DNA from: a virus
IMG/VR virus record: IMGVR_UViG_3300017991_000083
Coordinates: 27,367 to 91,366 of that record
Length of the DNA stretch: 64,000 nucleotides
Reading direction: 5' to 3' (one strand)
In this document: positions 14,901 through 63,504 of the stretch, one piece after another
Layout of the letters: each line of letters begins with the position of its first letter
Numbering within the stretch: position 1 is the first letter of the stretch
Program-made: the position numbers and the translations under genes
The notes under the pieces: model-generated
The model's database searches: none
What the model saw: only the letters and a program-made list of their open reading frames with translations
Told to the model about the DNA's origin: nothing

Positions 14901-15502
14901 TACCTCATGGAGATCGCCAGGCGCTCGGCCGTGGCCTGAGACTTGGAGATGGCCGCGGCGTAGGCGTTCGCGACACGGTCCGCGTTCTCCGTCCCCATCG
15001 CGAAGGCGTTCATGGCGGCGACGACCATCTGAGTCGTCTGACCCAGGTCGTTCATCGTCGCGCCGGCAAGGGTCAGGGTCGCGCCAAGGGCCTCGACGGT
15101 CTGTTCGGCATTGTAACCGGCACTGGCCAGGTAGTACATCGCCTGGGCCGTCTCGCGGGCGGAGAAGATGGTCGTCTGACCCCAATCTCGGGCAATCTCG
15201 CGCATCGAGGTCATGTCCCGGAAGTGCTCGCCCAGGACCGACCCGACGTTCGCCATCTCCTGCTCGAACTGCGCGAACTGCCGGACCGACATCGCGGCCA
15301 TCGCGGTGATGGCGGCGCCGGCGATCGTCGCCGCCATCCCCATCCGCTGGAGCTGAGGGCTGACCTCAGCGACCTGACGCTGGAAGTGACCGAGATGAGC
15401 CTTGGCGAGCTGTGTTCCGGAGACAAGCCCGGTCAGGTTCGCGTTGATAGCCACGAACACTGTGCCGAGCGATACCGCCCCCATGCCTACGCCGAACGCC
15501 AT
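11990..15502 (-). CDS. tail tape measure protein (TP901-like)
   Basis: FEQEMANV, FSARETAQAMYYLASAG, ASMAGTALR; long helical Ala-rich protein. Confidence 0.95.
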   Translation of the reverse strand: MAFGVGMGAVSLGTVFVAINANLTGLVSGTQLAKAHLGHFQRQVAEVSPQLQRMGMAATIAGAAITAMAAMSVRQFAQFEQEMANVGSVLGEHFRDMTSMREIARDWGQTTIFSARETAQAMYYLASAGYNAEQTVEALGATLTLAGATMNDLGQTTQMVVAAMNAFAMGTENADRVANAYAAAISKSQATAERLAISMRYVAPIAHNAGQEFETVVAALGLLYNSGMEASMAGTALRMSLVRLARLTPMARREIENLGIAAKDVDPTLNSLVDIVRQFEEHKITPRAASVIFGARALAGILNLVTAGSARLEEMEMSISGTNKAYEMLDIQTDTFIGTLKKLRNSINEIVLQFGQALVPVLRKVADGLRETALFLGDLPEWMQRVAAFSTTAAGGLTLLTGVLGFMVSLLPRIAVGLSMVKNVLLGLAGPVGWIVAALGALVAAFVGVGAAARKMEELSIQGQVERSAEIKKTIDAMGSEIESLDKLTTKLDELNGITAKSNAETAELQRVMNMLGNALPQVVTGFDDLGNVIGINRDALEEYRTTLVANHQMMLKLNQDRWQAQLEIAQMDLEMVKKRFATENEGFAELSAKWEGYKKARLEALSAGEGGAGGISISEYLGTEKEYNEQLARINEIDAEMRELIMTIATLKGWLTDLGGGEDTNYGLSEEEIDAIVKLQTEAAERLKAITLDNIENEFDRRREAAQRQYDEDIALADGLAGYQENLREQVADIEASMAKETDVQKIAEAEATRDILLTLIEDLASQESDLRLAAEKALQLAKAQIQKDADEETLRNRKQFLDRLKQLRIAAEEGQYAEARARAHAQYAEDMDLAKEAGEHRNEIETLAAIVLKQALVAIRRSELEEELQAERNKNRMSLTEYRDYIQARLAATAEGNEDYLALQAELVEVEQEIAEQRRQSWERWSSNIANSLSNATVNWLNALRRDSKEAEQIWTDLGQTIKDAIIKKALDPVAEAVVNAVAIMLEEVGKLIWRLLFAKALAWMLNLLPGLGDAAGAASSSTSSGAASTAFSTQDPVSGNTPFVGKVGGKNVRDGFAYIHHDERLLSPKLTDLVESMAEMPFPGAGMGQATIPETRPAQAPWESMGMDREDFLSIIAGSTPDQIIVAPGGMLSIDEDSVDDFYEKVMLPAKRRMIQRLRNATGEAID

Positions 15503-15505: not shown

Positions 15506-16066
15506 CTATCCCTTCTTCCGTTTCTTCTTCCGCTTGTCGATTACCTGGAAGCCCGGCACTGTCCCTGGCTTGGCGCCCGGAAGGCCGAACAGGGCCCGAG
15601 GGTCTTGGATCTTGAGCTTCGACTTCGTGATGCGGCCGGACTTGTCCTTGACCTGATCGACCTCTGTCGTCGCTCTAGGTGGGCAGACCAGGACATTACC
15701 CTTCCCCTTCACGTAGCGGGCGGTATAGGCGCCCTGTCCGTCCCCTCGCTGTCCTCCTACCTTGAGCCCGGGGCCGGGGGTTTCCCCGGCATCTCCCCCA
15801 TGTGCCTTCAGCGCTTCCTTCTGCAGATGGCTCCTTACCTGCATCGACTCACGGAGACCCTGCAGCAGCAGCCTGGCCTGAGGACGGGTAAGCTGCAGGA
15901 TGTCCCCCAGGGGCCACTTGAACTCTTGAGCAAATCGGACCACCAGTGCCCGCCACGAGCCCATCGCCTTGAGGAGCTCAGGGGGCAGGGTCTCTATTTG
16001 CTCGCCGGTCTCGCTGCGAGGACCGCTTCGCCCGCCGCCGAGACCGTTTTCATCCCGTCGAAAAAA
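15506..16066 (-). CDS. tail assembly chaperone, -1 frameshift extension (gpGT-like)
   Basis: Open -1 frame entered at T TTT TTC (16066-16060); WPLGDILQLT motif; sits between the chaperone and the tape measure. Confidence 0.75.
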   Translation of the reverse strand, partial: FFRRDENGLGGGRSGPRSETGEQIETLPPELLKAMGSWRALVVRFAQEFKWPLGDILQLTRPQARLLLQGLRESMQVRSHLQKEALKAHGGDAGETPGPGLKVGGQRGDGQGAYTARYVKGKGNVLVCPPRATTEVDQVKDKSGRITKSKLKIQDPRALFGLPGAKPGTVPGFQVIDKRKKKRKKG

Positions 16067-16464
16067 TCGTTGAGGTTGAGAATCGCCATCAGGAGCGGCG
16101 GGAAGCACCCGATCGGCATCTTCTTCAGCCGCTCAACGGTCAGATGTGGGTGGTGCTGGCGAAGTCCGTAGTGCGCGATATCGGCCAGGACCTGAATCGC
16201 CTCCTCAGGAACGACCTGCCCATCTTTCAGCTCCAGGGCATCCAGCTCGAAGAGCTTCGCCTGCAGGTCCGGAAGCTCGTCCATCGGGACGGCGCAGACC
16301 TTGAACGGCACGCCGCGCAGAATCACGGGCTCCGGGGCGTTCCGGAGCGCATCGATCTCATCCTGCTCGGGCGGTATCGCGGATTCGTCGACCGCCGCCG
16401 CGATCGGCTTCTCCTCAGGTGCCGCTCCGTCCTGCTCCACTGCCTCGTTCTTCTCTTCGGCCAT
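15994..16464 (-). CDS. tail assembly chaperone (gpG-like)
   Basis: Between tail tube and tape measure; AAGGAG SD; slippery site near the 3' end. Confidence 0.8.
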   Translation of the reverse strand: MAEEKNEAVEQDGAAPEEKPIAAAVDESAIPPEQDEIDALRNAPEPVILRGVPFKVCAVPMDELPDLQAKLFELDALELKDGQVVPEEAIQVLADIAHYGLRQHHPHLTVERLKKMPIGCFPPLLMAILNLNDFFDGMKTVSAAGEAVLAARPASK

Positions 16465-16532: not shown

Positions 16533-16985
16533 CTAGCTCTCGTCTCCGAGTTCGATCGTGCCGACGCTGTTGCTGCTGTCGGCCGTGGCCTCGAAGTCGA
16601 AGTTGGGAATGACGTGCGAGTCTCGTGCGAACGGGAACCTCAGGTTCGTCGCCCGGCACTCGTTGAGCGTGATGGTGAACGTCACGCTGTCGGTTGTCAT
16701 GGTGAACTCGAGCTGCCAGGTGTCGGGATACGACGTGTTGGAGAGCGCCACCGACGTCCCGGTTCTCGTGCCACCAGTGAGTCGCTCGACTCCCTTCGCG
16801 GTCAGATTCGCGAACTCGGCGCTGCCGGTGATCGACCCGGTATGCGTCCGAATGTCCTTCGGGAAGAGACCCGCACCGCTGTAGAGCTTCGCGACGTCGA
16901 AGCTGAAGTCGAGACTGAAGTTCTGCAGATGGCCCAGGATCTCCCCGTCCTGGCGCATTGTGCCAAGACCGAACTGGATAGCCAC
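16533..16985 (-). CDS. major tail tube protein
   Basis: 150-aa Thr/Ser-rich beta protein; strong GGAGGGGGTG SD; position. Confidence 0.8.
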   Translation of the reverse strand: MAIQFGLGTMRQDGEILGHLQNFSLDFSFDVAKLYSGAGLFPKDIRTHTGSITGSAEFANLTAKGVERLTGGTRTGTSVALSNTSYPDTWQLEFTMTTDSVTFTITLNECRATNLRFPFARDSHVIPNFDFEATADSSNSVGTIELGDES

Positions 16986-18020: not shown

Positions 18021-18376
18021 TAGCTATACCCGCCCTCTCCGTAAGCGTCCATGTAGACCTGCTTGTGGTGATCCTTCACGCCGCCTGGTCGATTGTCGAC
18101 ATAGCGGACGATGAACGTCTCGCCTGTGACCTCCTGGGTCAGAATGTCGTCGACCTTGACTATCGCCGTCGGCAGCATAAACCCGAGATGGGAGCTCGAC
18201 CCGATGACGCCGCCGACGCCGGCCTCTGCGGCCCCCTTGTTGCGCGTGATGCGGATGGGCTGATCGGTCGCCGCGAGCCGAGGGCCAGTGGCGATGTCGC
18301 CTGTGGCCGTGGTCGCCTGCGCCGGCACCCGCGCTATGCTCACCCGCTCGGGGAGTAGCCCCACCTTGATTGCCAT
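18020..18376 (-). CDS. head closure/stopper protein
   Basis: 118 aa; VKVDDIL...TFIVRYVD...HH pattern; position. Confidence 0.7.
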   Translation of the reverse strand: MAIKVGLLPERVSIARVPAQATTATGDIATGPRLAATDQPIRITRNKGAAEAGVGGVIGSSSHLGFMLPTAIVKVDDILTQEVTGETFIVRYVDNRPGGVKDHHKQVYMDAYGEGGYS

Positions 18377-19356
18377 CAGACCATCCCGTAGCCGTACTTC
18401 TGAACCACGAGCTTCATCATCCTCTGGACGCCGCCCGTGACCTTATCTCCGAACTTGGACTCGACCATCTTGAGATCCTGGCCGAACGTCGCCTCGTAGT
18501 CGGCCATGACGATGCTCTTCACGCCGAGCGCACTCACTGAGGCCTGCTCCTCCTCCAGGAGCCAGACCTGGGCCCGGAACGCGACCAGCATGTTCGCGAG
18601 CATCCTTACGTCGCTTGGGACCTCGGTGTAGCCGTAGGTGTACTGCACGTCGACGTTGACCGGGCCCTTCGTGAAGTAGGAGTAGGTATCGCTCACGAGC
18701 CGGATGCGCCCGTCGGCCGTGTAGACGTGGTAGTGGTCGCTCGAGATGGTCGTGGGCGTCGAGGAAGTCACGCCGTTGATGCAGTCCCTAAGGCGCGTCA
18801 CTGAGAGAACAGGCCAATGCCTGAGGATCACAGTGTCCTGGTCGTCGCGGTCGATGTCATGAACCTCGGTGCCGGCATCGTTGGCGTAGAAGTCATGCTG
18901 GCATTCCTGGTCGATGATAGTCTTTGCCCAATCGCGCCAGGTCTCCTTGATGTCGTCGACGGTGACTCCCTCGACAAGCTCCACAACCTCAGCCTTACTG
19001 TCGTAAGGATTTGTGTAGGCAGCCGCCCCGCCGGTCGTGACCTCGAAGTATTCCGTCCTGGCCGTGGCAGCTATCAGATTCCCGTTGACCTCGAAGTACC
19101 ACACGATCCGCCAGTTGGACCCTACGGTCGCGTCGACCGGCAGCGTGTAGCCCGTGAACTGGTAGTGGCCCTCTGCGAGCCTGGTGATGTTGCTGTTGTC
19201 CGTCTCCTCGTGGACCAGGGTCCCGCCCTGGTCATAGATCTTGAGAGTGGGCTCGGTCCCGCCGGCGTAGCCGTCGGGGTCGACGAGCGCCCCGCCCTCA
19301 GACACGTAGATGTAGATGTCGAGGTTGACGGCGTTGCCCTGTGCAAATGTCAGCAT
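18376..19356 (-). CDS. head-tail adaptor (gp6-like) with an N-terminal Ig-like domain
   Basis: LRHWPVLSV and VQYTYGYTEVPSDV adaptor motifs; extra ~110-aa beta domain. Confidence 0.8.
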   Translation of the reverse strand: MLTFAQGNAVNLDIYIYVSEGGALVDPDGYAGGTEPTLKIYDQGGTLVHEETDNSNITRLAEGHYQFTGYTLPVDATVGSNWRIVWYFEVNGNLIAATARTEYFEVTTGGAAAYTNPYDSKAEVVELVEGVTVDDIKETWRDWAKTIIDQECQHDFYANDAGTEVHDIDRDDQDTVILRHWPVLSVTRLRDCINGVTSSTPTTISSDHYHVYTADGRIRLVSDTYSYFTKGPVNVDVQYTYGYTEVPSDVRMLANMLVAFRAQVWLLEEEQASVSALGVKSIVMADYEATFGQDLKMVESKFGDKVTGGVQRMMKLVVQKYGYGMV

Positions 19357-19371: not shown

Positions 19372-20775
19372 CTACTCGAACTCACAGTAGCCGCCCTCTG
19401 CAGACGTTGTGTCATAGATGGCCTGAAGAATCGCCGACAGCGAGCCGGCGGCAGTGTGCTCGCTCAGGAGCTCGTCCAGGACAGCGTCTGCAACGTCAAG
19501 TGCCGTGATGCTTATCCCGTCTATCTGGTCACTCAGCGTCTCCAGCGTATCGCTGTCGGCCCCGCGAATGTTCGACTCTGTCGTGCTGATAGCCTGATCG
19601 AGGTCGGACAGGTTCGCGATGAGCGCTCCGGCGAACGGGGTCGAATCGGACAGGATGTCTGTCACGGCGATGTCGTTCAGGCTGGCTATGGCCGCATCGA
19701 TGGCATCGAGCTCGGACGCGGTGTCCGCCGGCAGATTGTCCGTCTTCGTCTTGATGGCGGAGACGTTCGATCCGACCACGGCCAGGGCGACAGTTGTGGC
19801 AAGGCCGCTAACGTCTGCCTTGAACTGGTCAGGATTGTCGAGGTCAGCCTGGACAGCCGCGATCTCGTCACTGAGATCCTTCAGGTCGTCGGAGTCCGCT
19901 CCACGGATATTGCTCTCGGTCGTGCTCAGGGCCTGGTCCAGAGTGCTGTCCAGGAGCTCAGCCAGGGATCCGGCAACTCCGGAGTGATCTGCAATCGCCT
20001 CCTCGAGAACGGCGTCGGCGATAGCGCCCGCTGTCGGATCGTTCAGGCCGGCTATGGCCGCATCGATAGCATCGAGCTCGGACGCAGTGTCCGCCGGCAG
20101 ATTGTCGGTCTTTGCCTTGATGCCCGCCATGTCGATCACCAGGTTGACAACGGCGCCGCCGAATGTGCCTCCAGTAGCGTGTCCGGCAGTAGACTCGTCC
20201 CACACGGCATCTGCGTTGTCTCCGGCGGTCGGGATGCTGAGTCCGGCTATCTCGTCTGAGATATCCTTCAGATCGTCGTCATCTGAGCCGCGGATGTTGC
20301 TCTCAGTCGTGCTGATGGCCTGATCGACCCGGGTGTTCAGGCTATCCATGTACCCGCCGAACGTGCCGCCGGTCGTGTGGCCGGCCATCGCTTCATCCAG
20401 GACAGCGTCGGCGATGGCCGCAGCGGTCGGGTCATTCAGTCCGGCGATGTCTGTGGCGAGGTCGTCGAAGACGTTGTCGGTTACATAGACGGCGCCCTCG
20501 TACTGTACACAGTCGTTCGCCTGGACGATGTAGAGGAGCGGGCCCTCTGTATCCAGGTCGCCTGAGGCGGGGTTCCAGGTATAGTGCCCGTCCCCGACCT
20601 CCGTCCAGTTGTCCGCGGTGATGGAATCGGTAGTCCAGGACGTCGCGTTCTTCTTGCGAAACTTCAGCGTGACGGACCCGTAGGCGATGCCCGTCTTGAC
20701 GGAATGATAGGTGTCGTCATCGCGAAAGATGACAGGCAGCTCTTCTGTAGACGAGTCCTTCGTTACGGGGTACAT
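19372..20775 (-). CDS. putative virion fibre/decoration protein with acidic helical repeats
   Basis: Repeats IADAVLDE/W, TTESNIRGADSDDLKDLSDEI and IKxKTDNLPADTASELDAIDAAIA. Confidence 0.65.
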   Translation of the reverse strand: MYPVTKDSSTEELPVIFRDDDTYHSVKTGIAYGSVTLKFRKKNATSWTTDSITADNWTEVGDGHYTWNPASGDLDTEGPLLYIVQANDCVQYEGAVYVTDNVFDDLATDIAGLNDPTAAAIADAVLDEAMAGHTTGGTFGGYMDSLNTRVDQAISTTESNIRGSDDDDLKDISDEIAGLSIPTAGDNADAVWDESTAGHATGGTFGGAVVNLVIDMAGIKAKTDNLPADTASELDAIDAAIAGLNDPTAGAIADAVLEEAIADHSGVAGSLAELLDSTLDQALSTTESNIRGADSDDLKDLSDEIAAVQADLDNPDQFKADVSGLATTVALAVVGSNVSAIKTKTDNLPADTASELDAIDAAIASLNDIAVTDILSDSTPFAGALIANLSDLDQAISTTESNIRGADSDTLETLSDQIDGISITALDVADAVLDELLSEHTAAGSLSAILQAIYDTTSAEGGYCEFE

Positions 20776-20777: not shown

Positions 20778-21500
20778 CTAAGCCATCCTTGGAGCGAATC
20801 GGGTGACGACGTGGATGTCCGCGCCGTCGACCCTATCTACGCGACTGTTCGGCGGGATGATCCCCTCTGCCATCAGAAGCCTTGACAGGGCCATCAGGCA
20901 GCCGCCGTAGAAGGTCAGGTTGCCGCTTGGCAGCTTGTTGAGGGCACCCTGGCGAACGTAGCCGACCTGCAGATAGCATCGATAGCCGCCCTTGCTCCGC
21001 CAGCCCTTGAACCTCCAGAGCAGGGAACCAGGCGGATCGGTGAAGCCCCCAACGTCGCGGAGCTCACAGTCTGTGTCGCCATCGATGTTGATGCACGAGA
21101 AGTCTGTGGCGTCGATAGTGAAAACGGCCGATGACCCTGGGTTCGAGGCCCAAGACTTGCTCCCCCAATAGTTCCCGGTTGGGAAGCCGTAGTCGCCGAG
21201 ATCGAGCGCCCCCCCGATGATATCGTGGTCGTAGTACAGGCCCACGACATACGTCCCGTTGTACCCTATTGGCTCCGTGACGGAGTGTGTTTCGCACGTG
21301 AACCTGGCCAAGTCCAGGACAACGCCGCCGGGAATGCTCGACGTGTCGAACGAATAGTAGGCCCTCCACTCCACAGGGTCGACCGAGTCGCCCTGCTGGA
21401 CGTTCGGATTCCACTCCGTTCCCGTGAAGTCGTGCGCTGACACCCCGTCCTTGATGTAGCCCCAAACGTCGGGGTTGAAAGAGTCGATGACGAGCGACAT
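20778..21500 (-). CDS. hypothetical virion-associated beta-rich protein
   Basis: MSLVIDSF start with GGAG SD; RAYYSFDTSSIP motif seen in surface proteins. Confidence 0.6.
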   Translation of the reverse strand: MSLVIDSFNPDVWGYIKDGVSAHDFTGTEWNPNVQQGDSVDPVEWRAYYSFDTSSIPGGVVLDLARFTCETHSVTEPIGYNGTYVVGLYYDHDIIGGALDLGDYGFPTGNYWGSKSWASNPGSSAVFTIDATDFSCINIDGDTDCELRDVGGFTDPPGSLLWRFKGWRSKGGYRCYLQVGYVRQGALNKLPSGNLTFYGGCLMALSRLLMAEGIIPPNSRVDRVDGADIHVVTRFAPRMA

Positions 21501-21595: not shown

Positions 21596-22699
21596 TTAGC
21601 CGACGATGTTCTTCGAGCTGCCCTCTACGAGCTCGAGCGCGGTCCGGCCCCGGCCCAGGCTCCGGTTCAGTTCCTCGTACCAGGTCGCGTGAGCCGCGAG
21701 CAGTTCTTCTGCCCGGTGCCTGTATGTGTGGCCTGCCAGAACGAGCTCGCGGCCGGCCCTGGCGATCCGGGTTCGGTCCTGATCCCGACGCGGGTCGACG
21801 AGGTCCTGGATGACTGCCACTGCCTTTTCTATCCGGTTGAACGAGACCAGGTTCACGCCGTTCTTGAACAGGCCCCCCATCCCCTCGAAGGCATAGGTCA
21901 CATAGACAGCCGTGCCGCAACACATCACGTTCCAGGTCCGGTTGCTCGTGTACTGGTCGATGTCGTTGTAGGCGTTGATTCCGAGCACAACCTTGGCGCT
22001 TGCGACTGCGATCGAGAAGTCCTTCTCATAGACCTTCCCGAAACAGGGGGCCCCGGCACCCCAATTCGTACCGTAGACCCGCAGCTTCAGGTCCGACTGT
22101 GCCACCAGGGACATGAGCTTCGCCCGCAGCGCCGAGTCCGGGAAGTGGGAGTAGTTTCCGCCCATGAATGCCACATCGCACTCGAACGCGGGGTCGGGCT
22201 TGACGGGCTTGTAGACATCCGGGTCACTGGCCGTGTGCCAGGTCATCACCCTGGGCACACCCAGGCGCCGGTAGCACTCGAACTGCAGCTCATCGGCGTT
22301 GCTCAGGAGCAGCATGTCACACACCGCTCCGAGCCTGGCGATGTCCCGCACCGCCATCCCGCGCTGATCCCCAAAGAACAGGGCGACGAATGTGCGAGGG
22401 GCGCTCTGCTTGATCGAGCGGACTATCGCGGGGTCGAGTCGCTCGCCCTTGTTGATGAGCACGATGTCAGGCTTCCAGGATCCGACCTTTTGCAGAACCT
22501 CTATTCCCATCCCCTCACCGCCGAGCTTCTTGGCTCTCGAACGGTAGTCGTAGTCGATGACCTCACATCCGGCCTGGCGAAGGCCCCGCGTACGCAGGTG
22601 ATCTGATACGTGGTCCTGCAGGAAGGTCCCGATGTGGAAGACCTTCAGCGGCCCGTCACTTTCCGACCTTGTCGGGGATGAACTCCGGAGCGGCGCCAT
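21596..22699 (-). CDS. glycosyltransferase, CgeB/Glyco_trans_1_2-like (GT-B)
   Basis: KPDIVLINKG, DVAFMG, LRVYGTNW, SAKVVLGIN and SNRTWNVM; start at the ATG after AAGAGGAG (uncertain). Confidence 0.88.
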   Translation of the reverse strand: MAPLRSSSPTRSESDGPLKVFHIGTFLQDHVSDHLRTRGLRQAGCEVIDYDYRSRAKKLGGEGMGIEVLQKVGSWKPDIVLINKGERLDPAIVRSIKQSAPRTFVALFFGDQRGMAVRDIARLGAVCDMLLLSNADELQFECYRRLGVPRVMTWHTASDPDVYKPVKPDPAFECDVAFMGGNYSHFPDSALRAKLMSLVAQSDLKLRVYGTNWGAGAPCFGKVYEKDFSIAVASAKVVLGINAYNDIDQYTSNRTWNVMCCGTAVYVTYAFEGMGGLFKNGVNLVSFNRIEKAVAVIQDLVDPRRDQDRTRIARAGRELVLAGHTYRHRAEELLAAHATWYEELNRSLGRGRTALELVEGSSKNIVG

Positions 22700-23444
22700 C
22701 TGGACTCCTCTTGATGCGGCCTCGCTTGGCCTGGTCTCTGAACGCGGTGTACTTCTTGTAGGCCTGGCGCTTGCACTTGGGGTGCTTCGGGTGGTCCATC
22801 GCCTCGACATAGGAGTGGATCTTCCCCTTCTCGTCTTCCCACCTGTTCGCGAGCTGTGCAACCTGCCAGCCCTTGGCCCGGACCCTGGCACAGAGCGGCG
22901 TTCCTGCGAAGCCCATGACCTGTCGCGGTCCGAGCTGGAACCCGCCGGCGTCTACGAGCGCCTTCTTGTGGCACACCCAATGGATCGGGCAGAGCATCTT
23001 CCTGAAGATGACCGTGATGTCGCCTCGGGTCTCGGTCCCGATGACGTTCGTCTTCCTGGGCTCCCCGTGATTGTGCCCGTTCACAAAAGCGAGCTCAGGG
23101 AATAGGCGTAGCGCCTCCATACAGATTTCGAGCCAGCCCGGGTTGTACCAGGCGTCGTCGTCGCTGATGGCGATTATCTTGCTCTTCGTCGCCTTGATCC
23201 CGATCATCCGGGCCTTCGCCGAGCCCTTGTTGTCGTCGAGCAGGATGGCAGTGAGCTTTCCCTGGTCCTGCATCTCCTGGAGCCATTCGCGGGTGCCGTC
23301 GGCGGAGTTGTTGTCGACCACGATGATACGGTGCGGATGGAGAGTGTTCTCGATCATCGAGCCGATGCAGTCCTTGAGATAGAGCAGCCGGTTGAACGTG
23401 ATGACAACGATGTCGACCACGGGGCGATCGTCCTTAGCTGCCAT
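22656..23444 (-). CDS. glycosyltransferase family 2
   Basis: DIVVITFNR, IIVVDNNSADGT and ISDDD. Confidence 0.9.
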   Translation of the reverse strand: MAAKDDRPVVDIVVITFNRLLYLKDCIGSMIENTLHPHRIIVVDNNSADGTREWLQEMQDQGKLTAILLDDNKGSAKARMIGIKATKSKIIAISDDDAWYNPGWLEICMEALRLFPELAFVNGHNHGEPRKTNVIGTETRGDITVIFRKMLCPIHWVCHKKALVDAGGFQLGPRQVMGFAGTPLCARVRAKGWQVAQLANRWEDEKGKIHSYVEAMDHPKHPKCKRQAYKKYTAFRDQAKRGRIKRSPDGAAPEFIPDKVGK

Positions 23445-24276
23445 TGTCTTCTCCCTTCTCCACTGGCTTTGGCACGAACTCGGGATCTCCGCCGAGCTTC
23501 GCACGGCGGGCGAACTCCTTGTATCCCGTGCTCTCATAGTAGTCATGGTGCGACTTCGGATGAGACGGATGGGCCATGTGTTCGACGTACCGAACGCCTT
23601 CGGCATCTGCGTTGCCGAGCTCTGTATAGGGCCGGATGAGTCGGTTGACGTTCCCTCGGTCCGCCAGTGTCTCGATAGTGAACTTCGCAGAATGCCCTCC
23701 GATCTCGTGCAGCTTGCCGAACGGGAACCCGCTCCCGAGCAGCTTGCCACGTGCGATCTTCATGCCGCCGGCCTCCTCAACGATGGAGCGTCGGAAGACC
23801 AGATGAAACGTCCGAAGCGAGGTCCGGAAGTCTATCGAGATGCCCTTGCGCCGTTCCGTTCTGACGTACTCCAACGTGCGACGATGGTCGGCCGACGTCA
23901 CAGAGACTTCGGGCCAGAGCTCGAGAATCCTCATGCAAACGGTTAGCCAGCCCGGGTTGTACCAGGCATCGTCATCGCTGATGGCCACGATCTCGCAGTC
24001 CGAGAGCTCCATGCCGGCGTAGAGCCCCTTGATGCGTCCGACGTTCTTCTCGAGGAAGACCGGAATGAGATTGCCCTCTGCAGCCTGTTCCTGGAGCCAT
24101 TCTACAGTCCCATCCTCGGAATGGTTGTCGACCACGATGAGCTTCCCGTAGGGGTAGCGCGTGTTCTCGCGGATTGACCGGATACACTCCTTGAGGTAGA
24201 GCAGCCGGTTGAAGGTAACTACGATGATGTCGACGGGCTCTGTGGGTGTTCCGTCATCCCATTCCGCATGGCTCAT
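23434..24276 (-). CDS. glycosyltransferase family 2 (paralogue of 22656..23444)
   Basis: DIIVVTFNR, VVDNHSEDGT and ISDDDAWYNPGWL. Confidence 0.9.
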   Translation of the reverse strand: MSHAEWDDGTPTEPVDIIVVTFNRLLYLKECIRSIRENTRYPYGKLIVVDNHSEDGTVEWLQEQAAEGNLIPVFLEKNVGRIKGLYAGMELSDCEIVAISDDDAWYNPGWLTVCMRILELWPEVSVTSADHRRTLEYVRTERRKGISIDFRTSLRTFHLVFRRSIVEEAGGMKIARGKLLGSGFPFGKLHEIGGHSAKFTIETLADRGNVNRLIRPYTELGNADAEGVRYVEHMAHPSHPKSHHDYYESTGYKEFARRAKLGGDPEFVPKPVEKGEDNGS

Positions 24277-24277
24277 G

Positions 24278-25435
24278 TCAGACCCCCATCATGTGCGACG
24301 CGACCTCGACGATGGTCTCGGCCCGCGCCTGGAACGTGTGCTTGTGCGCTATCTCCATGCCCTTCGCCGAGAGCTCGGCGCGTGCCGCGTCGTCGGCCAG
24401 GAACCGATGCACGAGACGGTTCAGGTCGTCGGCATTCCGGTACTCGGGAACGGTCTCCTTCATGAACGACTTCAGACCCTTGGCCCGATCACTGATACAG
24501 AACCCGCCACTGGCCAGGACGTCGAGAATCCTGAACGACAGGAAGCCTTCCTTGGCCATCGGCTTATGATGGTCATTGAGCGAGATGGCGGTAGAGTTGT
24601 AGAGGTCGGGCAGGCGCTCATAGGGCCAGTACTGGCCGGCGTACCAGCTCAGATCGAACCCGGGCTTTGACGGCCACTTGCATCCGATGACGACCGGCGT
24701 GTACCCGACCGGCTCCAGGTCCCGGATGATCTCGCGCCCAAAGCCCAGGGACCCGCGGGCGTTCCCAACGAACACGACGTTGTGCGAGAACGGCGGTTTC
24801 TTCTTCGGCGGCCGCATATCTGTACAGACCTCGAGCGGATGGACCGGCGGGCCCATGTCCCTGATCTGACTGATGAACGACGGCGACAGACAGAACACTA
24901 CGTCGTACTTCGCCATCTCCTCAGCGTCCATCTTCTGAGGATGAGAGTGGAACCAGCAGACGTTGAAGCTGCTCGGGTTGTAGAAGAACGGGTACTTGTC
25001 CTTCTGCGGGAACGGGTGCCCGAACAGGTAGACCGTCACATCAGCGAGCTCCGGGAAGACCTCAACGGTGTGCCCCATCGCCAGGAACCCGGCCTCGAGC
25101 CGTTTCTTGACCCACCAGTCGCCCCAACACTCGAAGGTCCTGGGATCGGTCTCGGCCCAGGTCCTGACGTTGATCGCCAGGCCCTTGATGTTCTTCGAGT
25201 TGTTGCGGATCTCCGTGAGCCTCCGTTCCGTCACCATCCGAGAGAGACGATTGCGCTCGGCCTTCAGAGCGTCGCGTTGGTTCGACCGACGGCCGCCGTC
25301 CACGCCGGCCAGCCTCGCCTCGAGCTTGCGGTCCTCTTCCGTCTGCTCTCGGAGCGGCTTGTTCACAAAGAGATGTCTTACCCGTTCACGTTCCGCGTCT
25401 ACCGGATTCAGGAAGTTCTTCGAGCTCTTGGGCAT
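24278..25435 (-). CDS. glycosyltransferase, CgeB-like (GT-B)
   Basis: WGDWW, VVFVGNAR, LPDLYNS, ISLNDH and SFRILDVLASGGFCISD; HTFQAR. Confidence 0.88.
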   Translation of the reverse strand: MPKSSKNFLNPVDAERERVRHLFVNKPLREQTEEDRKLEARLAGVDGGRRSNQRDALKAERNRLSRMVTERRLTEIRNNSKNIKGLAINVRTWAETDPRTFECWGDWWVKKRLEAGFLAMGHTVEVFPELADVTVYLFGHPFPQKDKYPFFYNPSSFNVCWFHSHPQKMDAEEMAKYDVVFCLSPSFISQIRDMGPPVHPLEVCTDMRPPKKKPPFSHNVVFVGNARGSLGFGREIIRDLEPVGYTPVVIGCKWPSKPGFDLSWYAGQYWPYERLPDLYNSTAISLNDHHKPMAKEGFLSFRILDVLASGGFCISDRAKGLKSFMKETVPEYRNADDLNRLVHRFLADDAARAELSAKGMEIAHKHTFQARAETIVEVASHMMGV

Positions 25436-26403
25436 CAGAGATTCTCCACTGCCGCGATAACTCGCTTCGCGGCGCCAAGGAACGTCAGGGGCGGGACCTG
25501 GGCCCGCATCTTCTCGCAGATCCTCTTTCTGTCAGCCTCTGTCAGGGACGTCAGGTGCGCGAGTTGTATCCTGGCGTCTGCGGGACTGAAATAGGTCGGC
25601 CAGTGAGTCTGGATGGCGCCGTCGTCGGACAGCTTGACCGGATCAACCAGGGGCAGTCCGCCGGCCGCGATGACGTCGAGGACCTGGTGCTTCAGGAACC
25701 CGCGTATCGCCATTGGGGTCTGATGGTCGATGAGAACGACCTTCGCAGAGTGATAGAGATCCTGCAGGCGCCAGAAGTCATGGTACTTCGCAATCCACCT
25801 GTCTCCTGCCCTGTTCCAGTTCCGGCCCCATACCCCGAACGAGAATGCCAGGTCCCGGCGATCCAACAGATAGTCGGCAACCGGGCGCCCCCCGCGACTA
25901 GGCCGGGCGTTGCCGATGAACACCACGTCGGGACACTCTGCGTCGATCTGCGTAGTGGTCTGATTCACGAAATTCTTGCCCTGGATCATCCGGTCGGTGC
26001 TCGGTCGGATGAGGACAGGATCGGCTGTGCCGAACAGGTGCGAGCAGGGGGGCAGGTACTTGACCACGGCCTCGGCGTCGCGGATCTGCCCGTTGGCCTC
26101 CTGTTCTATCCACGTGGCAGATGTGCAGAATACGATGCTGTACTTCCGCAGCTCGCTCAGGGTCATCAGTTCGGGATGACTGTAGAACCAGGCTACGTTC
26201 AACTTGCCCGGGGGAACGGCCCGCTTGGCCGGCGCCTTCCCCCAACAGTAGAAGTTCAGATCTGATCGATAGGGATTGTCGACGAGCCGATGCCCGAGCT
26301 CCTCGAATGCGTGCCCCATCAGAACCCGGACCCAATGATCGCCCCAAAAGGGCTGTGAGGGCCCGGGTTCGTGACTGGACCTGTCGTAGAGATGTATCCG
26401 CAC
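25435..26403 (-). CDS. glycosyltransferase, CgeB-like (paralogue of 24278..25435)
   Basis: WGDHW, WFYSHP, VVFIGNAR, VWGRNW, LYHSAKVVLIDH. Confidence 0.85.
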   Translation of the reverse strand: MRIHLYDRSSHEPGPSQPFWGDHWVRVLMGHAFEELGHRLVDNPYRSDLNFYCWGKAPAKRAVPPGKLNVAWFYSHPELMTLSELRKYSIVFCTSATWIEQEANGQIRDAEAVVKYLPPCSHLFGTADPVLIRPSTDRMIQGKNFVNQTTTQIDAECPDVVFIGNARPSRGGRPVADYLLDRRDLAFSFGVWGRNWNRAGDRWIAKYHDFWRLQDLYHSAKVVLIDHQTPMAIRGFLKHQVLDVIAAGGLPLVDPVKLSDDGAIQTHWPTYFSPADARIQLAHLTSLTEADRKRICEKMRAQVPPLTFLGAAKRVIAAVENL

Positions 26404-28715
26404 TAGAGCTCCCTGACGTCTGCAACCCCGTAGTACATGTGCGTTATCATCCGAGGCGGCAGATCCCCACGGAACGGTTCCGCAGTCCCGCCGCCGGTTG
26501 TGGGCTGAGTCTCTTCGCCAGGCTGCCAGTTGGAGTAGCGGTCCTCAACATTCCGCTCGATGCCGCGGCCGGCATAGTAGCCGAGCTTAGCCCGGATCTT
26601 CGAGGTCGGCTGCACGTAGCCGAAGTGGTAGACCAGTTTGTCTGCCACTACCGCCTCTTTGTAGCCCGTCTCTGAGCGGACCGGGCGGCCCTCGCTGTCG
26701 ACGAACGTATTGAACGACTTCTCGTGATGGAAGCCCTGACTCCAGCGCCACATTCTCGGGATCTTCGACTCCCACTGAGGGCAGCCGACAGCGACCGTTG
26801 TGAAGTTCGTCCAGAAGTGATGGAAGCCCACGCGGACGATTGCCAGCTCACGGTCGTCTACGAACATCTTCATGAGGCGAGCGACGTCTTTCGGCTCCCA
26901 TATCTCGTCGCTATCGACCTTCATGTAGATGTCGCCCGTCACACGCTTGGCGATCGCGTTCTGCATCTCAACCTTGTCCTTCCACCGATGATCCTTGGGC
27001 GGGGGGACGAGAGTGATCTTCTCATCCGGGTCGGGATAGGCCGCGATCTTCTGGAGTGTCGCATCGGTGCTGGAGCCGCGCTCGTCGGCGTGTTGCCACA
27101 TCCCTTCGACTGCCCCCTCGACGATGATGATCTCGTGGGCGAGATCGTAGATGCCGTCGAGCGCCTCCGTGATGTAGGAGTCGCCGTTGAAGACTATCAT
27201 GCCGACGGAGAGCTTCGGGCCGTAGCCCCCTACCCGGAAGATGTCGAGGGACTTCTTGGTGCTCGCCTCGATGGTACACCAGTCCAGAATCCGGTCCCGG
27301 CCTCGGGCCACAGTCGCTGAGACTTCGGCGCGGTTTTCTGGCTCGAGCACCCAGGACACCTTTTCCGCGAAGTCGCCAGGGTCGCCCAGGCGTGCGTAGA
27401 AGACGCCGTCCCCGTAGGAACCACGGAGCACCGGGAGATCGTAAGCGACAACGGGCGTGTTCATGTAGAGCGCCTCTTCGGGGGGCATTCCGAACCCCTC
27501 GAACATGCTCGGGAACAGCAGTACGTCGGCTTTCTTGATGGCCTCGAACTTGGAGCGGTCGTCGACAATGCCCTGAACGTCGACGTAGAGATGGTTCTCA
27601 GCCCACTCGGGCCTCTTGGCGTCGAGCCTCTTCTGCTCGTTCGGGCCGACCTTACCCATCACCGTCACATGTGCCGAGCACTGCAGGGTCTCCGCAAGCG
27701 CATCGAACACCGCGATCGGGTTCTTGAAGTCGACCATCCTGGCACAGAACACGAGCTCGGCCCCGTACTCGGGCTCCTGCTCCCGCTCACGCGCCTCCGC
27801 CCTCGAGAGCTCGTCGTCTATCTCGTCCACATCATCGAAGATGGGATCGGCGATGCCCGCCAGAGTGGCGTCGGCCACAAGCTGGTTGATCGGCGGCTCG
27901 AGCACGAACCAGGGACCCTCGAAATCCGGAAGCCACTGTTGGGCCCATCTCGAGCTTACCGCGGACGGACTCACGATCCCGTCGCAGGTGAGCAGGCACT
28001 TCTTGTAGTTCGCCCAGTACTCCTCTGTCGCATCTCTGCCAGACGGATAGGTCATCCCCTTGAAGTTCGGGCTCTCGAAGAGGATCAGGTAACAGGGAAT
28101 GCCGAAACGCTCGGCGTAGGACTTGGCGAACTGGCCTCCGATGTTCGGCACACCAATGACGAAGTCGAACTCGTTCTCGGAGATGTCCATCCCCCATCGG
28201 GTGTCGACGATGCGCTCGAACCGCTCGAGGTTGTAGCCAAGGAAGTCCTTCTCGAACGGCGCCGGCGTGTTCGTGATGACCTTGACGTCCATGACCTGGG
28301 ACAGGATGACGCCAAGCAGATACATTGAGTAGCGTCCGCCCGTGTAGTGCGGCATCTGCTCCATGAAGATAGCGCAGCTCCGCGGGGCCTTGCTCGGGCC
28401 GTAGGTCAGATACTGGCGTTCTGATGGGAGAGGGATGAAGAGCGGGCTGGTCGCAAGCGCGACGAGCTGCCCGAGCTTGTGCGAGTCAGCGTTCTCGATG
28501 AACTTCTTGGGGATGGTTAGCTGATAGGCAGTAGGCAGTTCTTCAATGGAGATGTCCGGCACATCCTCATCGGCAGCGATGACGGGGCCGGACTCTACTG
28601 GCGTAGGGGCGGTTTCGCCCACAAAGGCCTTGCGACTCTCCAGCGGTGCGCCCCCGCCTTCGACGAAGTTCTTTGTGGGCTCGTCCCGCTCGAGGGACCG
28701 TTTCGTATCTCCCAT
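26403..28715 (-). CDS. bifunctional glycosyltransferase (GT4 plus GT2-like)
   Basis: ADVLLFPSMFEGFGMPPEEA (GT4), then LSVGMIVFN...IIIVEG...STDAT...VDSDEIW (GT-A). Confidence 0.92.
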   Translation of the reverse strand: MGDTKRSLERDEPTKNFVEGGGAPLESRKAFVGETAPTPVESGPVIAADEDVPDISIEELPTAYQLTIPKKFIENADSHKLGQLVALATSPLFIPLPSERQYLTYGPSKAPRSCAIFMEQMPHYTGGRYSMYLLGVILSQVMDVKVITNTPAPFEKDFLGYNLERFERIVDTRWGMDISENEFDFVIGVPNIGGQFAKSYAERFGIPCYLILFESPNFKGMTYPSGRDATEEYWANYKKCLLTCDGIVSPSAVSSRWAQQWLPDFEGPWFVLEPPINQLVADATLAGIADPIFDDVDEIDDELSRAEAREREQEPEYGAELVFCARMVDFKNPIAVFDALAETLQCSAHVTVMGKVGPNEQKRLDAKRPEWAENHLYVDVQGIVDDRSKFEAIKKADVLLFPSMFEGFGMPPEEALYMNTPVVAYDLPVLRGSYGDGVFYARLGDPGDFAEKVSWVLEPENRAEVSATVARGRDRILDWCTIEASTKKSLDIFRVGGYGPKLSVGMIVFNGDSYITEALDGIYDLAHEIIIVEGAVEGMWQHADERGSSTDATLQKIAAYPDPDEKITLVPPPKDHRWKDKVEMQNAIAKRVTGDIYMKVDSDEIWEPKDVARLMKMFVDDRELAIVRVGFHHFWTNFTTVAVGCPQWESKIPRMWRWSQGFHHEKSFNTFVDSEGRPVRSETGYKEAVVADKLVYHFGYVQPTSKIRAKLGYYAGRGIERNVEDRYSNWQPGEETQPTTGGGTAEPFRGDLPPRMITHMYYGVADVREL

Positions 28716-28762: not shown

Positions 28763-29131
28763 CTAGAAGACTCCCATGATACCGACGTTGACTGTCGTTG
28801 CCGTCGACGCTATCCGGCGGACATAGAAATGGTCCTCGGGCTCGTCCAGGACGATGTCGAGCGGGGCCGCGACCCCGACCATAACACGCCCGTTCTCGTG
28901 CGCTGTGTGATCGGTGCCCCACGAGAACCACACCGACCAGGCGGTCGAGACCGATCCGTCGACCACAACCCGTATCCTGCGACACGGCTTCGAGAGAACG
29001 ATCTCAGAGGTCGCGTCGTGAACCACTGCCAGAGCCTCGCCGCAGCAGACCTTGTTCTGTGGAATGACGATCGCGGCCTTGAGGATACTGTCGCCGTCCT
29101 CGAGTTCGTGCTTCCTGACTCCCGGGGGCAT
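28763..29131 (-). CDS. hypothetical protein
   Basis: GGAGGAGG SD; beta-rich, 122 aa. Confidence 0.65.
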   Translation of the reverse strand: MPPGVRKHELEDGDSILKAAIVIPQNKVCCGEALAVVHDATSEIVLSKPCRRIRVVVDGSVSTAWSVWFSWGTDHTAHENGRVMVGVAAPLDIVLDEPEDHFYVRRIASTATTVNVGIMGVF

Positions 29132-29956: not shown

Positions 29957-30943
29957 CTAGCTCGTGGAGCTCGGGTGCTCGAGGTTGTAGATCTGGCACA
30001 GCGCCGCGTGATGCTCGACGTTGAAGTCCATCCTCACGCTGATGACCGACCTGCGAGCGTCGTAGTGGATGACCTCCTCCGACTTGAACTTGATGAGCCG
30101 CCTGTCACCGATGACAGGGTTCTGCACATGCGTCATCACGCCGCCGCCGTCAGGAAGGTAGTTGCTCGCGAAGACGGTGATCTTCCCGTAGAGCTTCCCG
30201 AACTCGCCGGAGTGGATGGTCGCGTTCGGACCGTACTTGTCGACGGTCACGAGCTTCGCATCGTCCAGGAGCTGGTTCACGCTCCACGGATTGAGGAAGA
30301 CGACCAGGTCCTGCATCTTGCGCCCGTACTTGCCGAGGTTGAACATCGCCTCGCGCAGGAACGCTGTACTCATCGCAGCGCCATTCGCGTTGACTCTCGG
30401 AGCCGAAGACGCGACGCGGCCGGCGCGAGTGTAGAGCCCGTCCCAGGTCGTCCTGTGGTCCTTCGTGAACCAGTTGGCGTCCGTCGCGAGCGCCTCGGTG
30501 GCGGCCGTAGCCGTGTGGGTGGTATCACCCACGAGCATGGCCTCCTCCTCAGCCTCCGCGATAGCAGCGCCGAACTGGTCACGGACGATTGCCTGGAAGT
30601 CCGTGTTGGCGTCCTCGTAGAGCTCTTCACTGACCATCATCTGCGACATGAGCTTCTTCGCCGTCAGGCGAATCGTGCCCGTAGTGAAGCTGGTCTCGGT
30701 CGCCTCGGCAGCCTGGGTCGACTGATGGTAGACCTTGGCCGCACTCAGAACCTTCGGGAAGTCGAGCGTCATGCTCGTCATCGTGACGGTCCTGAAGATC
30801 TGACGGCAGACGTTCCTCTCCCTCACGAAGTCGATAAACTCATCGGCCAGTGGGGTCGGAAGGAAGTCGCCGCCGGTGCCGGCCGTAGTGTTCATCGCCT
30901 TTCGCAGGGCATCGCCGAGCGTACCGATTTTCCTCTTAGCCAC
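29957..30943 (-). CDS. major capsid protein (HK97 fold)
   Basis: GGDFLPTPLADEFI, LTAKKL...VSEELYED, GKLYG and VIGDRR; GAGGAGGTG SD. Confidence 0.93.
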   Translation of the reverse strand: MAKRKIGTLGDALRKAMNTTAGTGGDFLPTPLADEFIDFVRERNVCRQIFRTVTMTSMTLDFPKVLSAAKVYHQSTQAAEATETSFTTGTIRLTAKKLMSQMMVSEELYEDANTDFQAIVRDQFGAAIAEAEEEAMLVGDTTHTATAATEALATDANWFTKDHRTTWDGLYTRAGRVASSAPRVNANGAAMSTAFLREAMFNLGKYGRKMQDLVVFLNPWSVNQLLDDAKLVTVDKYGPNATIHSGEFGKLYGKITVFASNYLPDGGGVMTHVQNPVIGDRRLIKFKSEEVIHYDARRSVISVRMDFNVEHHAALCQIYNLEHPSSTS

Positions 30944-33632: not shown

Positions 33633-33700
33633 GCTGTTCAACATCTGAACACCTACTCTGCATAAGGGCTTCGTCAACTGTAAGCAAGACTGAAAGTGCT
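33633..33700 (-). promoter_or_regulatory. conserved late-module regulatory element, copy 2
   Basis: TGTTCA-ACATC-TGAACA (33635-33651) and AAGCAAGACTGAAAGTGCT (33682-33700). Confidence 0.6.
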
Positions 33701-35204
33701 ACGCCGGGCGTCTGAGACCGGCGATCTTATACTCTCCGCCCCTCAGTCGAGACACGACGATGTCGTTCTGGTGCGACTTCTGTGTCACGTCCTGGATGAA
33801 CTCGAGTGTCATGCGCCGGCCCTCGTCGGTATCGGTGTGCTCGGCCTCCTGATGTACATAGGACTCCAGGTCTTCCCGCCCGACGATGGCGAGCATCCGG
33901 TTGAACACCTGATGCTGGAGCGTCCCGGTCTCGAAGGGGTTCTTCACGTCCTCGGGCGGCGCGGTCATCATGTAGTAGGCAACCGCGTTCCGCCAGGCGA
34001 GCTCGGTCATGGCCTCGAGCTGCTCCGGCGTTGACTCCTCGAGTGCCGACGGGGGCAGGGCCTTCTCGACGTACGGTCGAGGATCGAGTCCAAGCAGCTC
34101 GATCAGCGGCAGCATCTCGGCGTGATCTGCCAGGGACCAGCCCGGGCCCAGGATCTGGTAGCTGAGCTCGAGCGCTTCCGGCCCTGCCTCTGGCACGGCG
34201 ATCTCGAACATGAGCTCGGTCGGCTCCCCAATGACGGGTCGCCAGGTGCAGCGGCACCGGCAGTGCAGGGGCAGCATCCCCGATGCGTCCTCGACGGAAT
34301 AGACCTGATCGTGTTCCGCAAGGCAATCGGGGCATGTGCGATGGTCGTCGGTCGCCGTGTACTGGACGTAGCCGACACCCGTCTGCCGGTAGCCCTCGAG
34401 CTTCCCCTCGTTGTACCAGCGCAGGACCTCGGTCCTGGCCGTGATAGTCGCCCAATTCGAGGCCTCCAGGTTGTACTCGTAGCCGCGGCGTAGAACCTCG
34501 TCAGTCACGGGGTCGATGAGCGGCTCTACCGCGATCGGGATGGGCTTGTTCCAGACCGCCAGGATGCGATCGCGGATCACCGGGATGGACTCGCCCTGGC
34601 GCAGCCCCTCGACGAGTGCCGCCTTGATCTGGTCCGAGATGTGCAGTGCGATGTGCGCCGAGAGCTGCAGGATGTACTCTTCGGCTATCTGGACGGTCAG
34701 CGGATCGCGCATCTCGAACTCGATGGGGATCTCGAACTCGGCGAACGCGCTGTCGCCGCCGGCCTTCAGGGCCTCGAACAGGTTCGCGGCGAAGATGTTG
34801 CGGTAGGGCTCGTAGTCGACATAGCTGATGGTCCTGATGGCATCGGACGCGATGTCCTGCTTCTGGAGCCATCGGCGGACGGGTGCCGGCATGGGCCGGC
34901 GCTCGAAGACGGTCTCGATCTGGTAGGGATGCTTCCAGGGGAACTCTTTGACTCGCTTCTCGACCTTGCGGCCCTTGAGGTAGCTGAAGGCCTCTTTCCT
35001 GGCCTTTTCGGTCATGTGCTTATCGAACAGGGCCAGGCACCGATCGCGCTGAGTCTCGAGGACGCGCATGAGCGCGACCTCTATCCAGAGCTGCTGGAGC
35101 ATCGTCCACTGGTAGAGGGGCGCATCGGGATCGAAGAACCGATCCCACACGTCGACCCGGCGCGAGCCGGTTATCTGTTCTGCGAGCTGTTCCTTCAGCG
35201 GCAT
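33699..35204 (-). CDS. Mu gpF/SPP1 gp7-like minor head protein
   Basis: EGLRQGESI, TARTE, DDHRTCPDC and PLHCRCRC. Confidence 0.9.
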   Translation of the reverse strand: MPLKEQLAEQITGSRRVDVWDRFFDPDAPLYQWTMLQQLWIEVALMRVLETQRDRCLALFDKHMTEKARKEAFSYLKGRKVEKRVKEFPWKHPYQIETVFERRPMPAPVRRWLQKQDIASDAIRTISYVDYEPYRNIFAANLFEALKAGGDSAFAEFEIPIEFEMRDPLTVQIAEEYILQLSAHIALHISDQIKAALVEGLRQGESIPVIRDRILAVWNKPIPIAVEPLIDPVTDEVLRRGYEYNLEASNWATITARTEVLRWYNEGKLEGYRQTGVGYVQYTATDDHRTCPDCLAEHDQVYSVEDASGMLPLHCRCRCTWRPVIGEPTELMFEIAVPEAGPEALELSYQILGPGWSLADHAEMLPLIELLGLDPRPYVEKALPPSALEESTPEQLEAMTELAWRNAVAYYMMTAPPEDVKNPFETGTLQHQVFNRMLAIVGREDLESYVHQEAEHTDTDEGRRMTLEFIQDVTQKSHQNDIVVSRLRGGEYKIAGLRRPA

Positions 35205-36702: not shown

Positions 36703-37095
36703 CTATTCAGCCCCGAGATGCTGGTTCATCCAGATGATAACCAGCAGAGCCGGCACGCAGCACAGGGCCACGATCCACTGATTCCCGCCTGTCTCCAGGG
36801 CCCGCCAAAGGGCCTGGATCATTGTGGCCACAACCGATATCGCGGCCAGCAGAGTGAAGACGGATGTCGCCGCAGTCCCGATGCCGATGATGACCTCCCA
36901 CACACCAGAGGCCTTCTTGCCGAACACTGCGAGTGCCGCAGCGATGTTCTTCTTGCGGGCTTCCTTCTTCTGCGCCTGGGCCTTGGCCCGTTTCTCGCGC
37001 TTCAGGCGCTTCCTGTTCTCGATGCAGGTAGAGCAGGTGCAGTCCGGGGCATGTGCGCCAGGGAACTGCTCGTCGGCTGTACTAGGTGTCTCCAT
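36703..37095 (-). CDS. membrane protein with an N-terminal Cys/His cluster
   Basis: HAPDCTCSTC, basic helix, two TM segments; GGAGGAGG SD. Confidence 0.6.
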   Translation of the reverse strand: METPSTADEQFPGAHAPDCTCSTCIENRKRLKREKRAKAQAQKKEARKKNIAAALAVFGKKASGVWEVIIGIGTAATSVFTLLAAISVVATMIQALWRALETGGNQWIVALCCVPALLVIIWMNQHLGAE

Positions 37096-43157: not shown

Positions 43158-43658
43158 TTATGGCCCTGGGCGCCGTAGATCCTCGATATCCGGGACCACC
43201 AGCATTCCCGTCATCCACGGAACCAGGACCAGTTCCATGCCGTAGATAGTCCACGTCCCCGCGGGGCCTGTCAAGTGCAAGTCGGACTTCACAGGGATGC
43301 GTACCGCCCCCATACGTTCCATCGTTCGTACCGTCCCGCTCGACAGGAACCTGTCGAACTTATCCCGTCCCATGTAGACGGTCAGGCGATGAGCCCGCCC
43401 GTAGGCCCGCAAAATGGCCTGGCGGGCGGCCAGGACCTCGTTCGCGATGTCGTGGTGCCTGATGACGAACCGCTGCATCGCAACGTAGTCCACACGATGC
43501 GCGTACTCCTTGCCGTACCGCGCCAGGACCCTCTGCGCGAGCCTCTGCAGTGGCCAGGTCCAGCGCGGCTTAGATCCGTCGAACTGGTACTGGCCATAGC
43601 ACAGGAACGAGGCCTGCAACGGGACAGGCTCCAGCATGTCGACTACCTGAGTATCCAC
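43158..43658 (-). CDS. hypothetical protein
   Basis: AAGGGGGAG SD; coupled to the upstream gene. Confidence 0.6.
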   Translation of the reverse strand: MDTQVVDMLEPVPLQASFLCYGQYQFDGSKPRWTWPLQRLAQRVLARYGKEYAHRVDYVAMQRFVIRHHDIANEVLAARQAILRAYGRAHRLTVYMGRDKFDRFLSSGTVRTMERMGAVRIPVKSDLHLTGPAGTWTIYGMELVLVPWMTGMLVVPDIEDLRRPGP

Positions 43659-56950: not shown

Positions 56951-56951
56951 G

Positions 56952-63490: not shown

Positions 63491-63504
63491 GCGCCTTTTT
63501 GTGC

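Follow-up and report, generated by a model that had tools for sequence, protein, structure and literature searches.

Six co-oriented glycosyltransferase (GT) genes of an uncultured phage probably form a system for the O-glycosylation of virion proteins, in which the GT4+GT2 fusion enzyme GT_A would prime the terminal serines of two proteins, the major capsid protein (MCP) and the tail tube protein. We put the probability of this reading at about two in three; the acceptor residue, the order of the enzymes, the priming by GT_A and the methylation are what we infer. The genes lie in a 64,000-nt stretch of DNA, hereafter the window, which spans bases 27367-91366 of IMG/VR record IMGVR_UViG_3300017991_000083; this record is a complete phage genome of 91,366 bp bounded by direct terminal repeats. 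The GT genes occupy positions 21596-28715 of the minus strand, encode seven GT domains and are located between the MCP gene and the gene for the head-tail adaptor. The features on which the argument turns are listed in the direction of transcription.

29957-30943, minus strand: MCP, ending in ...PSSTS (PF05065, 6e-19; phrog_1623)
26403-28715, minus strand: GT_A, 770-residue fusion of a GT4 domain (PF00534, 7.5e-15, 55 bits) and a GT2 domain (PF00535, 5.7e-7)
25435-26403, minus strand: GT_B, CgeB-like GT-B enzyme (PF13524, E = 3e-4, 21.2 bits, below the cut-off of 25)
24278-25435, minus strand: GT_C, CgeB-like GT-B enzyme (PF13524, 2e-19, 70.3 bits, cut-off 25)
23434-24276, minus strand: GT_D, GT2 enzyme of GT-A fold (PF00535, 4e-22)
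22656-23444, minus strand: GT_E, GT2 paralogue 43% identical to GT_D (PF00535, 1e-24)
21596-22699, minus strand: GT_F, second subtype of CgeB-like GT-B enzyme (PF13524, 3e-19, 70.0 bits)
18376-19356, minus strand: head-tail adaptor, downstream boundary of the cassette (phrog_442, 9e-15)
16533-16985, minus strand: tail tube protein, 150 residues, ending in ...LGDES (AlphaFold2 model and Foldseek)

Linkage of GT_A to capsid genes

A GT_A profile matched 103 IMG/VR stretches; 80 of these were kept as loci, and PF05065 was searched on 35 of the corresponding records. PF05065 matched in 30 of these records, and 27 of them have the MCP gene directly upstream of GT_A on the same strand; the three exceptions are single-domain GT_A matches in 111-269 kb contigs. 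Distant GT_A matches (25-29% identity, in 110-270-kb contigs) occur in other contexts and were not counted as orthologues. The GT_A gene follows the MCP gene in all relatives with 55-84% MCP identity, at loci whose GC content ranges from 28 to 63%. Among MCPs followed by GT_A, the median distance from the MCP stop codon to the aligned start of GT_A is 405 nt (n = 70). The MCPs beside GT_A belong to at least two families without mutual BLAST similarity, i.e. the window family of about 330 residues and another of about 450-residue open reading frames (ORFs). The persistence of this gene order across unrelated capsid genes argues that GT_A is functionally connected with the capsid protein.

Adaptor homologues flank the cassette in the relatives too, and GT_C and GT_F each have orthologues there. 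The number of CgeB-like and GT2 genes differs from one cassette to another, and several methyltransferases occur among them; a constant GT_A accompanied by varying extra genes agrees with a glycan of changing composition on an unchanging anchor. Some relatives encode DegT/EryC1-type sugar aminotransferases (L003:16865-18055, L004:19791-20981 and L005:17232-18389) and one a polysaccharide pyruvyl transferase (L012:18791-19603), suggesting that, in contrast to the window phage, some of these phages do their own tailoring of nucleotide sugars.

Terminal serines on capsid and tail tube proteins

Nearly all MCPs adjoining GT_A end in serine preceded by small residues, e.g. PSSTS, TGSGS, SSGTS or DEADS, and the C-terminal serine of the window MCP is invariant in its relatives. 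All loci were processed by a single pipeline, in which GT_A and each of the two MCP families had its own profile and the MCPs were deduplicated on their last 150 residues. An MCP was scored as having GT_A when the latter was found within 5 kb downstream, and as lacking it only when at least 1.2 kb of downstream sequence was available. Terminal serine was present in 69 of 70 distinct MCPs with GT_A and in 0 of 4 without it, whose last residues are V, L, A and T (Fisher p = 4e-6, a statistic that ignores phylogeny). Locus L158 was considered as an exception and rejected, given that its contig is frameshifted and the true end is ...PSDES.

The AlphaFold2 model of the tail tube protein has a predicted local distance difference test (pLDDT) score of 75, and its top Foldseek matches are all siphophage tail tube proteins, with a probability of 1.00. 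All 9 distinct homologues of this protein (39-55% identity) end in GD-x-S. As controls from the same phages, we scored the adaptor (0/9 ending in serine), the 118-residue neck protein g18020 (0/7) and the portal (4/32); the background among the 1090 ORFs of these loci, MCPs and tail tubes included, is 14%.

Passages of PMC12619734, PMC11600133 and PMC12363180 describe the mycobacteriophages Che8, Corndog and Myrna as glycosylating their capsid and tail tube by phage GTs and, quoting Freeman et al. 2023 (Cell Host Microbe 31:1216), place the glycans at the C-termini of these two proteins. In the deposited Che8 genome, the MCP (gp6) ends in ...NKTGS and the major tail protein (gp11) in ...YSDGS, and none of 8 other structural proteins ends in serine. 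In that of Corndog, the MCP (gp41) ends in ...PLVGS and gp49, the tail tube protein by position, in ...IKGDS.

Enzymes of the cluster

An original prediction, made from the letters of the DNA, had described a GT4+GT2 fusion, three CgeB-like enzymes and two GT2 enzymes, co-oriented and located between capsid and neck genes, and every one of these elements was reproduced with Pfam. It had also stated that the GTs have no obvious transmembrane segments and that genes for nucleotide-sugar synthesis are missing, and both statements held: no membrane segment was detected in any GT by Kyte-Doolittle analysis (highest 19-residue mean at most 1.37, versus 2.26 in a control membrane ORF), and neither nucleotide-sugar genes nor a GtrA-like family turned up in scans of this genome. 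Of the tests it had named, synteny came out positive, the cassette being syntenic in every relative with enough flanking sequence, and the catalytic motifs (EX7E, DxD and DDD) proved invariant across homologues.

GT_A consists of a disordered tail (residues 1-53), a small domain, a GT4 domain of GT-B fold (about 112-495) and a GT2 domain of GT-A fold (about 500-770). E406-x7-E414, D551 and D601-x-D603 are invariant among 18 homologues of 32-71% identity. Its AlphaFold2 model (pLDDT 80.7) has the GT4 enzymes GlgA, BshA, MshA and PimA as top Foldseek matches. The GT-B fold, the E-x7-E motif and the Foldseek probability of 1.00 to GT4 enzymes assign it to CAZy family GT4, whereas the GT-A fold and DxD motif of CAZy family GT2 are found in its C-terminal half, in GT_D and in GT_E. 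Sequence and fold searches of the PDB with GT_A returned generic GT4 enzymes as the nearest and did not reveal an acceptor class. In some homologues (P0016 and P0018; 1043-1051 residues), a third domain, GT2-like, is appended C-terminally.

The DDD motif (D102-D103 in GT_D) is invariant in GT_D, GT_E and their homologues. GT_C and GT_F score above the Pfam gathering threshold of PF13524 and GT_B, a paralogue of GT_C with 31% identity, scores below it. The CgeB-like profile had no match among solved structures, and none of the NCBIfam matches of the GTs reached the curated cut-off. The starts of GT_E and GT_F were refined to 23444 (start codon and ribosome-binding site) and 22699, respectively. 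Adjacent GT genes overlap by up to 44 nt or are at most 1 nt apart, and neither a promoter-like site nor a convincing terminator was found inside the cluster.

A short peptide, [STGDN]-K-[NH]-[FIL]-[VIL], occurs 4 times in the 28,240-residue phage proteome, each time within a GT, at approximately the following positions.

28662-28676: KNFV, in the disordered N-terminal tail of GT_A
25409-25423: SKNFL, at the N-terminus of GT_C
25966-25980: GKNFV, in an inserted loop of GT_B at residue 142
21602-21616: SKNIVG, at the extreme C-terminus of GT_F

In relatives, GT_A and the GT_C-type enzymes also carry the peptide close to their N-termini, and from its distribution in the proteins it may be a shared docking motif gathering the GTs on one platform.

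Proposed mechanism and points against it

The six GT genes would be translated late, alongside the capsid and tail genes, and the soluble enzymes would work in the cytoplasm using host nucleotide sugars. GT_A, the sole enzyme that is always present and whose gene always comes immediately after that of the capsid protein, is the proposed primer: it would place a sugar on the last serine of the MCP and of the tail tube protein and then add a second one. Extension or branching of the glycan would fall to the two GT2 and three CgeB-like enzymes, and its O-methylation probably to one or two PF13578 methyltransferases. As a result, both polymeric surfaces of the particle would bear a multi-sugar coat. 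Our confidence is lower for a more general proposal, namely that O-glycosylation of terminal serines, parallel in mechanism to that of the mycobacteriophages but performed by enzymes unrelated to theirs, is widespread among uncultured phages of very different GC content, with the GT4+GT2 fusion as invariant core, a glycan diversified by a changing complement of additional GTs, aminotransferases, pyruvyl transferases and methyltransferases, and several of the enzymes gathered on one platform through the K-N-[FIL]-[VIL] peptide; we consider this full set tentative and give it a little less than an even chance.

Several points weigh against glycosylation of the terminal serines. Two loci possess GT_A and lack the terminal serine (L085, ending in ...TAA, and L083, ending in ...TGV), and two more with GT_A (L165 and L166) have an MCP ending in threonine. 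L083 and L085 may use a different acceptor; in L083 (7660-11740), a GT_A-like protein of 953 residues follows the MCP. The negative controls are only four distinct sequences, which tend towards the divergent end of the family, so common descent may account for some of the correlation; moreover, one terminal residue makes a slender signature. In fold and sequence searches, the GT4 domain groups with enzymes acting on sugar, lipid or small-molecule acceptors, not with known protein O-glycosyltransferases. Even in the published phages, the attachment of the glycan to the terminal serine itself is suggested by the sequences of the proteins. BLASTP and profile searches of the window GTs against Che8 gp108-110 and Corndog gp36-38 gave nothing better than E = 0.03; with no detectable similarity between the enzymes, mechanistic equivalence rests on analogy.

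Alternative acceptors and functions

The GTs could act on a different virion acceptor, e.g. a decoration protein, internal serine or threonine residues of the capsid, or the acidic repeat protein encoded directly downstream of the cassette.

19372-20775, minus strand: acidic repeat protein, 467 residues (87 D/E versus 18 K/R)

This protein has a net charge of about -69. Its first 100 residues or so form a domain, after which come three to four long repeats, and the sequence ISTTESNIRG is present in three of these. Its atlas neighbours are viral hypothetical proteins only. It is probably a head or neck fibre or a decoration protein, and it is an alternative candidate for the glycan acceptor. 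Its position next to the cassette and its repeated Ser/Thr clusters (three STTES repeats) speak for this role, and a place in the late operon suits any virion acceptor. Nevertheless, it has no counterpart in relatives that retain the GT cassette, and its modification would leave the correlation between GT_A and the serines of MCP and tail tube unexplained, so that we regard a different acceptor as unlikely.

Rather than the virion, the enzymes could remodel a host glycan, i.e. cell-wall precursors, exopolysaccharide or a receptor, against superinfection or the sticking of progeny to debris. GT2, GT4, pyruvyl transferase and DegT enzymes are typical of polysaccharide loci, and the PHROG families nearest to the GTs are labelled morons or host takeover. 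We searched for membrane segments, a flippase, a polymerase and lipid-carrier enzymes and found none, and Pfam scans returned neither an integrase nor any other lysogeny family. Moreover, the GTs are late genes with an obligatory linkage to capsid genes in unrelated phages, and remodelling of the host does not account for the serine correlation either. We therefore consider this explanation quite improbable.

The nearest solved GT4 enzymes (BshA, MshA, sucrose-phosphate synthase and SenB) use small acceptors, which would suit production of a soluble cytoplasmic oligosaccharide or glycosylation of a small molecule unrelated to the particle; such a function provides no rationale for the strict post-capsid placement or for the serine correlation, and we consider it very improbable. 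Least credible of all is glycosylation of the phage DNA, as in T4 and in the phages of Pyle et al. 2024 (cited in PMC12619734, a passage of which describes phages with multi-GT sets for the decoration of DNA): a ThyA-like hydroxymethylase (PF00303) is absent from the complete genome by a search that detected 10 positive controls, TET/JBP (PF12851) gave no match (weak evidence, since the controls were also silent), no base-modification families are found among the replication genes (DnaE, DnaB, primase, RecA, SbcCD and UDG being some of them), and the GT genes lie in the late head operon, away from those genes.

Proposed methylation and sulfation

Two S-adenosylmethionine (SAM) methyltransferases are encoded in the window.

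37082-37744, minus strand: SAM methyltransferase between terminase and portal (PF13578, 30.6 bits, above cut-off)
3414-4229, minus strand: second PF13578-like methyltransferase, adjoining the endolysin (E = 2e-4, 24.1 bits, just below cut-off)

The first shares its family, PF13578, with Corndog gp35 and is a candidate sugar O-methyltransferase; whether the second belongs to the glycan system is uncertain. Two methyltransferases and two sulfotransferases had been anticipated in the window, and the glycan was accordingly expected to be possibly methylated and sulfated. Both methyltransferases were recovered as PF13578 proteins. The only sulfotransferase signal, in contrast, is a match of 20-31 residues, below cut-off (16.5-18.1 bits), at the N-terminus of ORF 43658-44311, which covers model positions 1-31 only, and a PDB search with this ORF gave no sulfotransferase match. 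Thus the core of the predicted virion glycan is supported by the order of MCP and GT_A and by the serine ends, its methylation is plausible, and its sulfation, for which the scans contained no genuine sulfotransferase match, was rejected.

Genomic setting

The minus strand carries nearly all genes of the window. Read in transcriptional order, the late module comprises the terminase, a methyltransferase, the portal, a MuF-like protein, a ChaB-domain protein, the MCP, a cupin and two small ORFs, then the six GT genes, two further genes, the head-tail adaptor, the neck genes and the tail tube, followed by an overlapping ORF pair, a 1170-residue protein, a tail protein of 1879 residues and an endolysin amidase. 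The members not listed above are the following.

37665-39467: putative large terminase, 600 residues, by position only, without Pfam match
35208-36689: portal
33699-35204: MuF-like protein
Between the MuF-like protein and the MCP: ChaB-domain protein, 629 residues
29419-29880, minus strand: Cupin_2 protein, just downstream of the MCP (PF07883, 7e-11)
28763-29131, minus strand: small protein between MCP and GT_A (found by tblastn in the corresponding place in L002 and L017, 41-58% identity)
20778-21500, minus strand: 240-residue protein, 95-nt gap after GT_F (from a frame plot of GC content at third codon positions, GC3)
11990-15502: 1170-residue protein, tape measure by position

The PDB matches of the cupin are generic metal-cupins; no NCBIfam match was above cut-off, and no counterpart was present among the relatives examined. 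The small protein between MCP and GT_A is kept in the closest relatives, and a family search with it returned no match. The gene downstream of GT_F is the one at 20778-21500, rather than a long ORF extending to 21923, and its product had no match in Pfam, PHROG or the PDB. Searches with the cupin, the 240-residue protein and the acidic repeat protein gave no assignment to glycan chemistry. Upstream of the 1170-residue protein, the overlapping ORFs 15994-16464 and 15506-16108 resemble, by position, a tail assembly chaperone pair with programmed frameshift.

The GC content is about 62% and climbs to 71-81% across the final 10 kb (54000-64000), which adjoins the terminal repeat; the GC3 of the ORFs in this region is 0.84-0.95. 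A tRNA search of the phage found none. Against GenBank phages, neither megablast nor tblastn with GT_A returned a match, and the MCP had one weak match to a Bacillus phage. Two matches in genome collections are contigs of metagenome-assembled genomes, both probably of phage origin; one of these contigs was binned with Chloroherpeton.

Significance and comparison with known systems

To our knowledge, glycosylated phage particles have been demonstrated experimentally in mycobacteriophages only, and Freeman and co-workers reportedly found few indications of them outside this group. The locus described here, carried by about a hundred uncultured phage contigs of very different base composition, points to an independent set of enzymes that would share with the mycobacteriophage systems both targets and the terminal-serine mark. 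If our reading is true, sugar-coated virions would be common and not a peculiarity of actinobacteriophages, which would affect the encounters of particles with hosts, mucus, grazers and antibodies. Terminal serine together with a downstream GT4+GT2 gene would then be a simple sequence predictor of glycosylated virions, and the two would provide a compact enzyme-and-tag pair for tests of capsid glyco-engineering.

Gtr serotype-conversion cassettes resemble the cluster in containing phage-encoded GT2-family enzymes, and a weak match to phrog_841 was obtained. However, Gtr systems consist of membrane proteins, use bactoprenol-linked sugars and are expressed from prophages, whereas the window GTs are late genes, have no membrane segments and include no membrane-embedded flippase or GT acting on a lipid carrier; the window phage appears to be lytic. 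Chlorovirus PBCV-1 builds a methylated glycan on its major capsid protein with multidomain cytoplasmic GTs of viral origin such as A064R. PBCV-1, however, is a eukaryotic virus with N-linked glycans and a double jelly-roll capsid.

In the spore crust of Bacillus subtilis, CgeB, the type member of PF13524, is found with glycosylation enzymes of the SpsA/CgeD-type GT2 group. There as here, CgeB-like GT-B enzymes occur together with GT2 enzymes, and their substrate would be a protein shell that assembles by itself, modified in the cytoplasm without the help of a lipid carrier or flippase. The similarity to CgeB is at the level of family PF13524, with no NCBIfam equivalog, and the phage context and the acceptor differ.

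The closest parallel in function would be the mycobacteriophages, which share with the window phage soluble phage-encoded GTs and, in Che8 and Corndog, capsid and tail tube proteins ending in serine. The Corndog cassette combines a PF13578/TylF methyltransferase (gp35, PF13578/PF05711) with three small GT-A enzymes and lies between portal and protease, likewise inside the head module; Corndog and the window phage thus both have a PF13578 O-methyltransferase and GT genes placed within or next to the structural module. The window phage differs in having six genes with seven GT domains instead of three small GT-A enzymes, and the GT4+GT2 fusion as an anchor behind the MCP is found in its lineage, unlike in the mycobacteriophage systems. 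Unlike the mycobacteriophages, this lineage is uncultured, spans a GC content of 28-63% and is without a GenBank phage relative. By analogy, the system would act like that of the mycobacteriophages yet belong outside its enzyme families.

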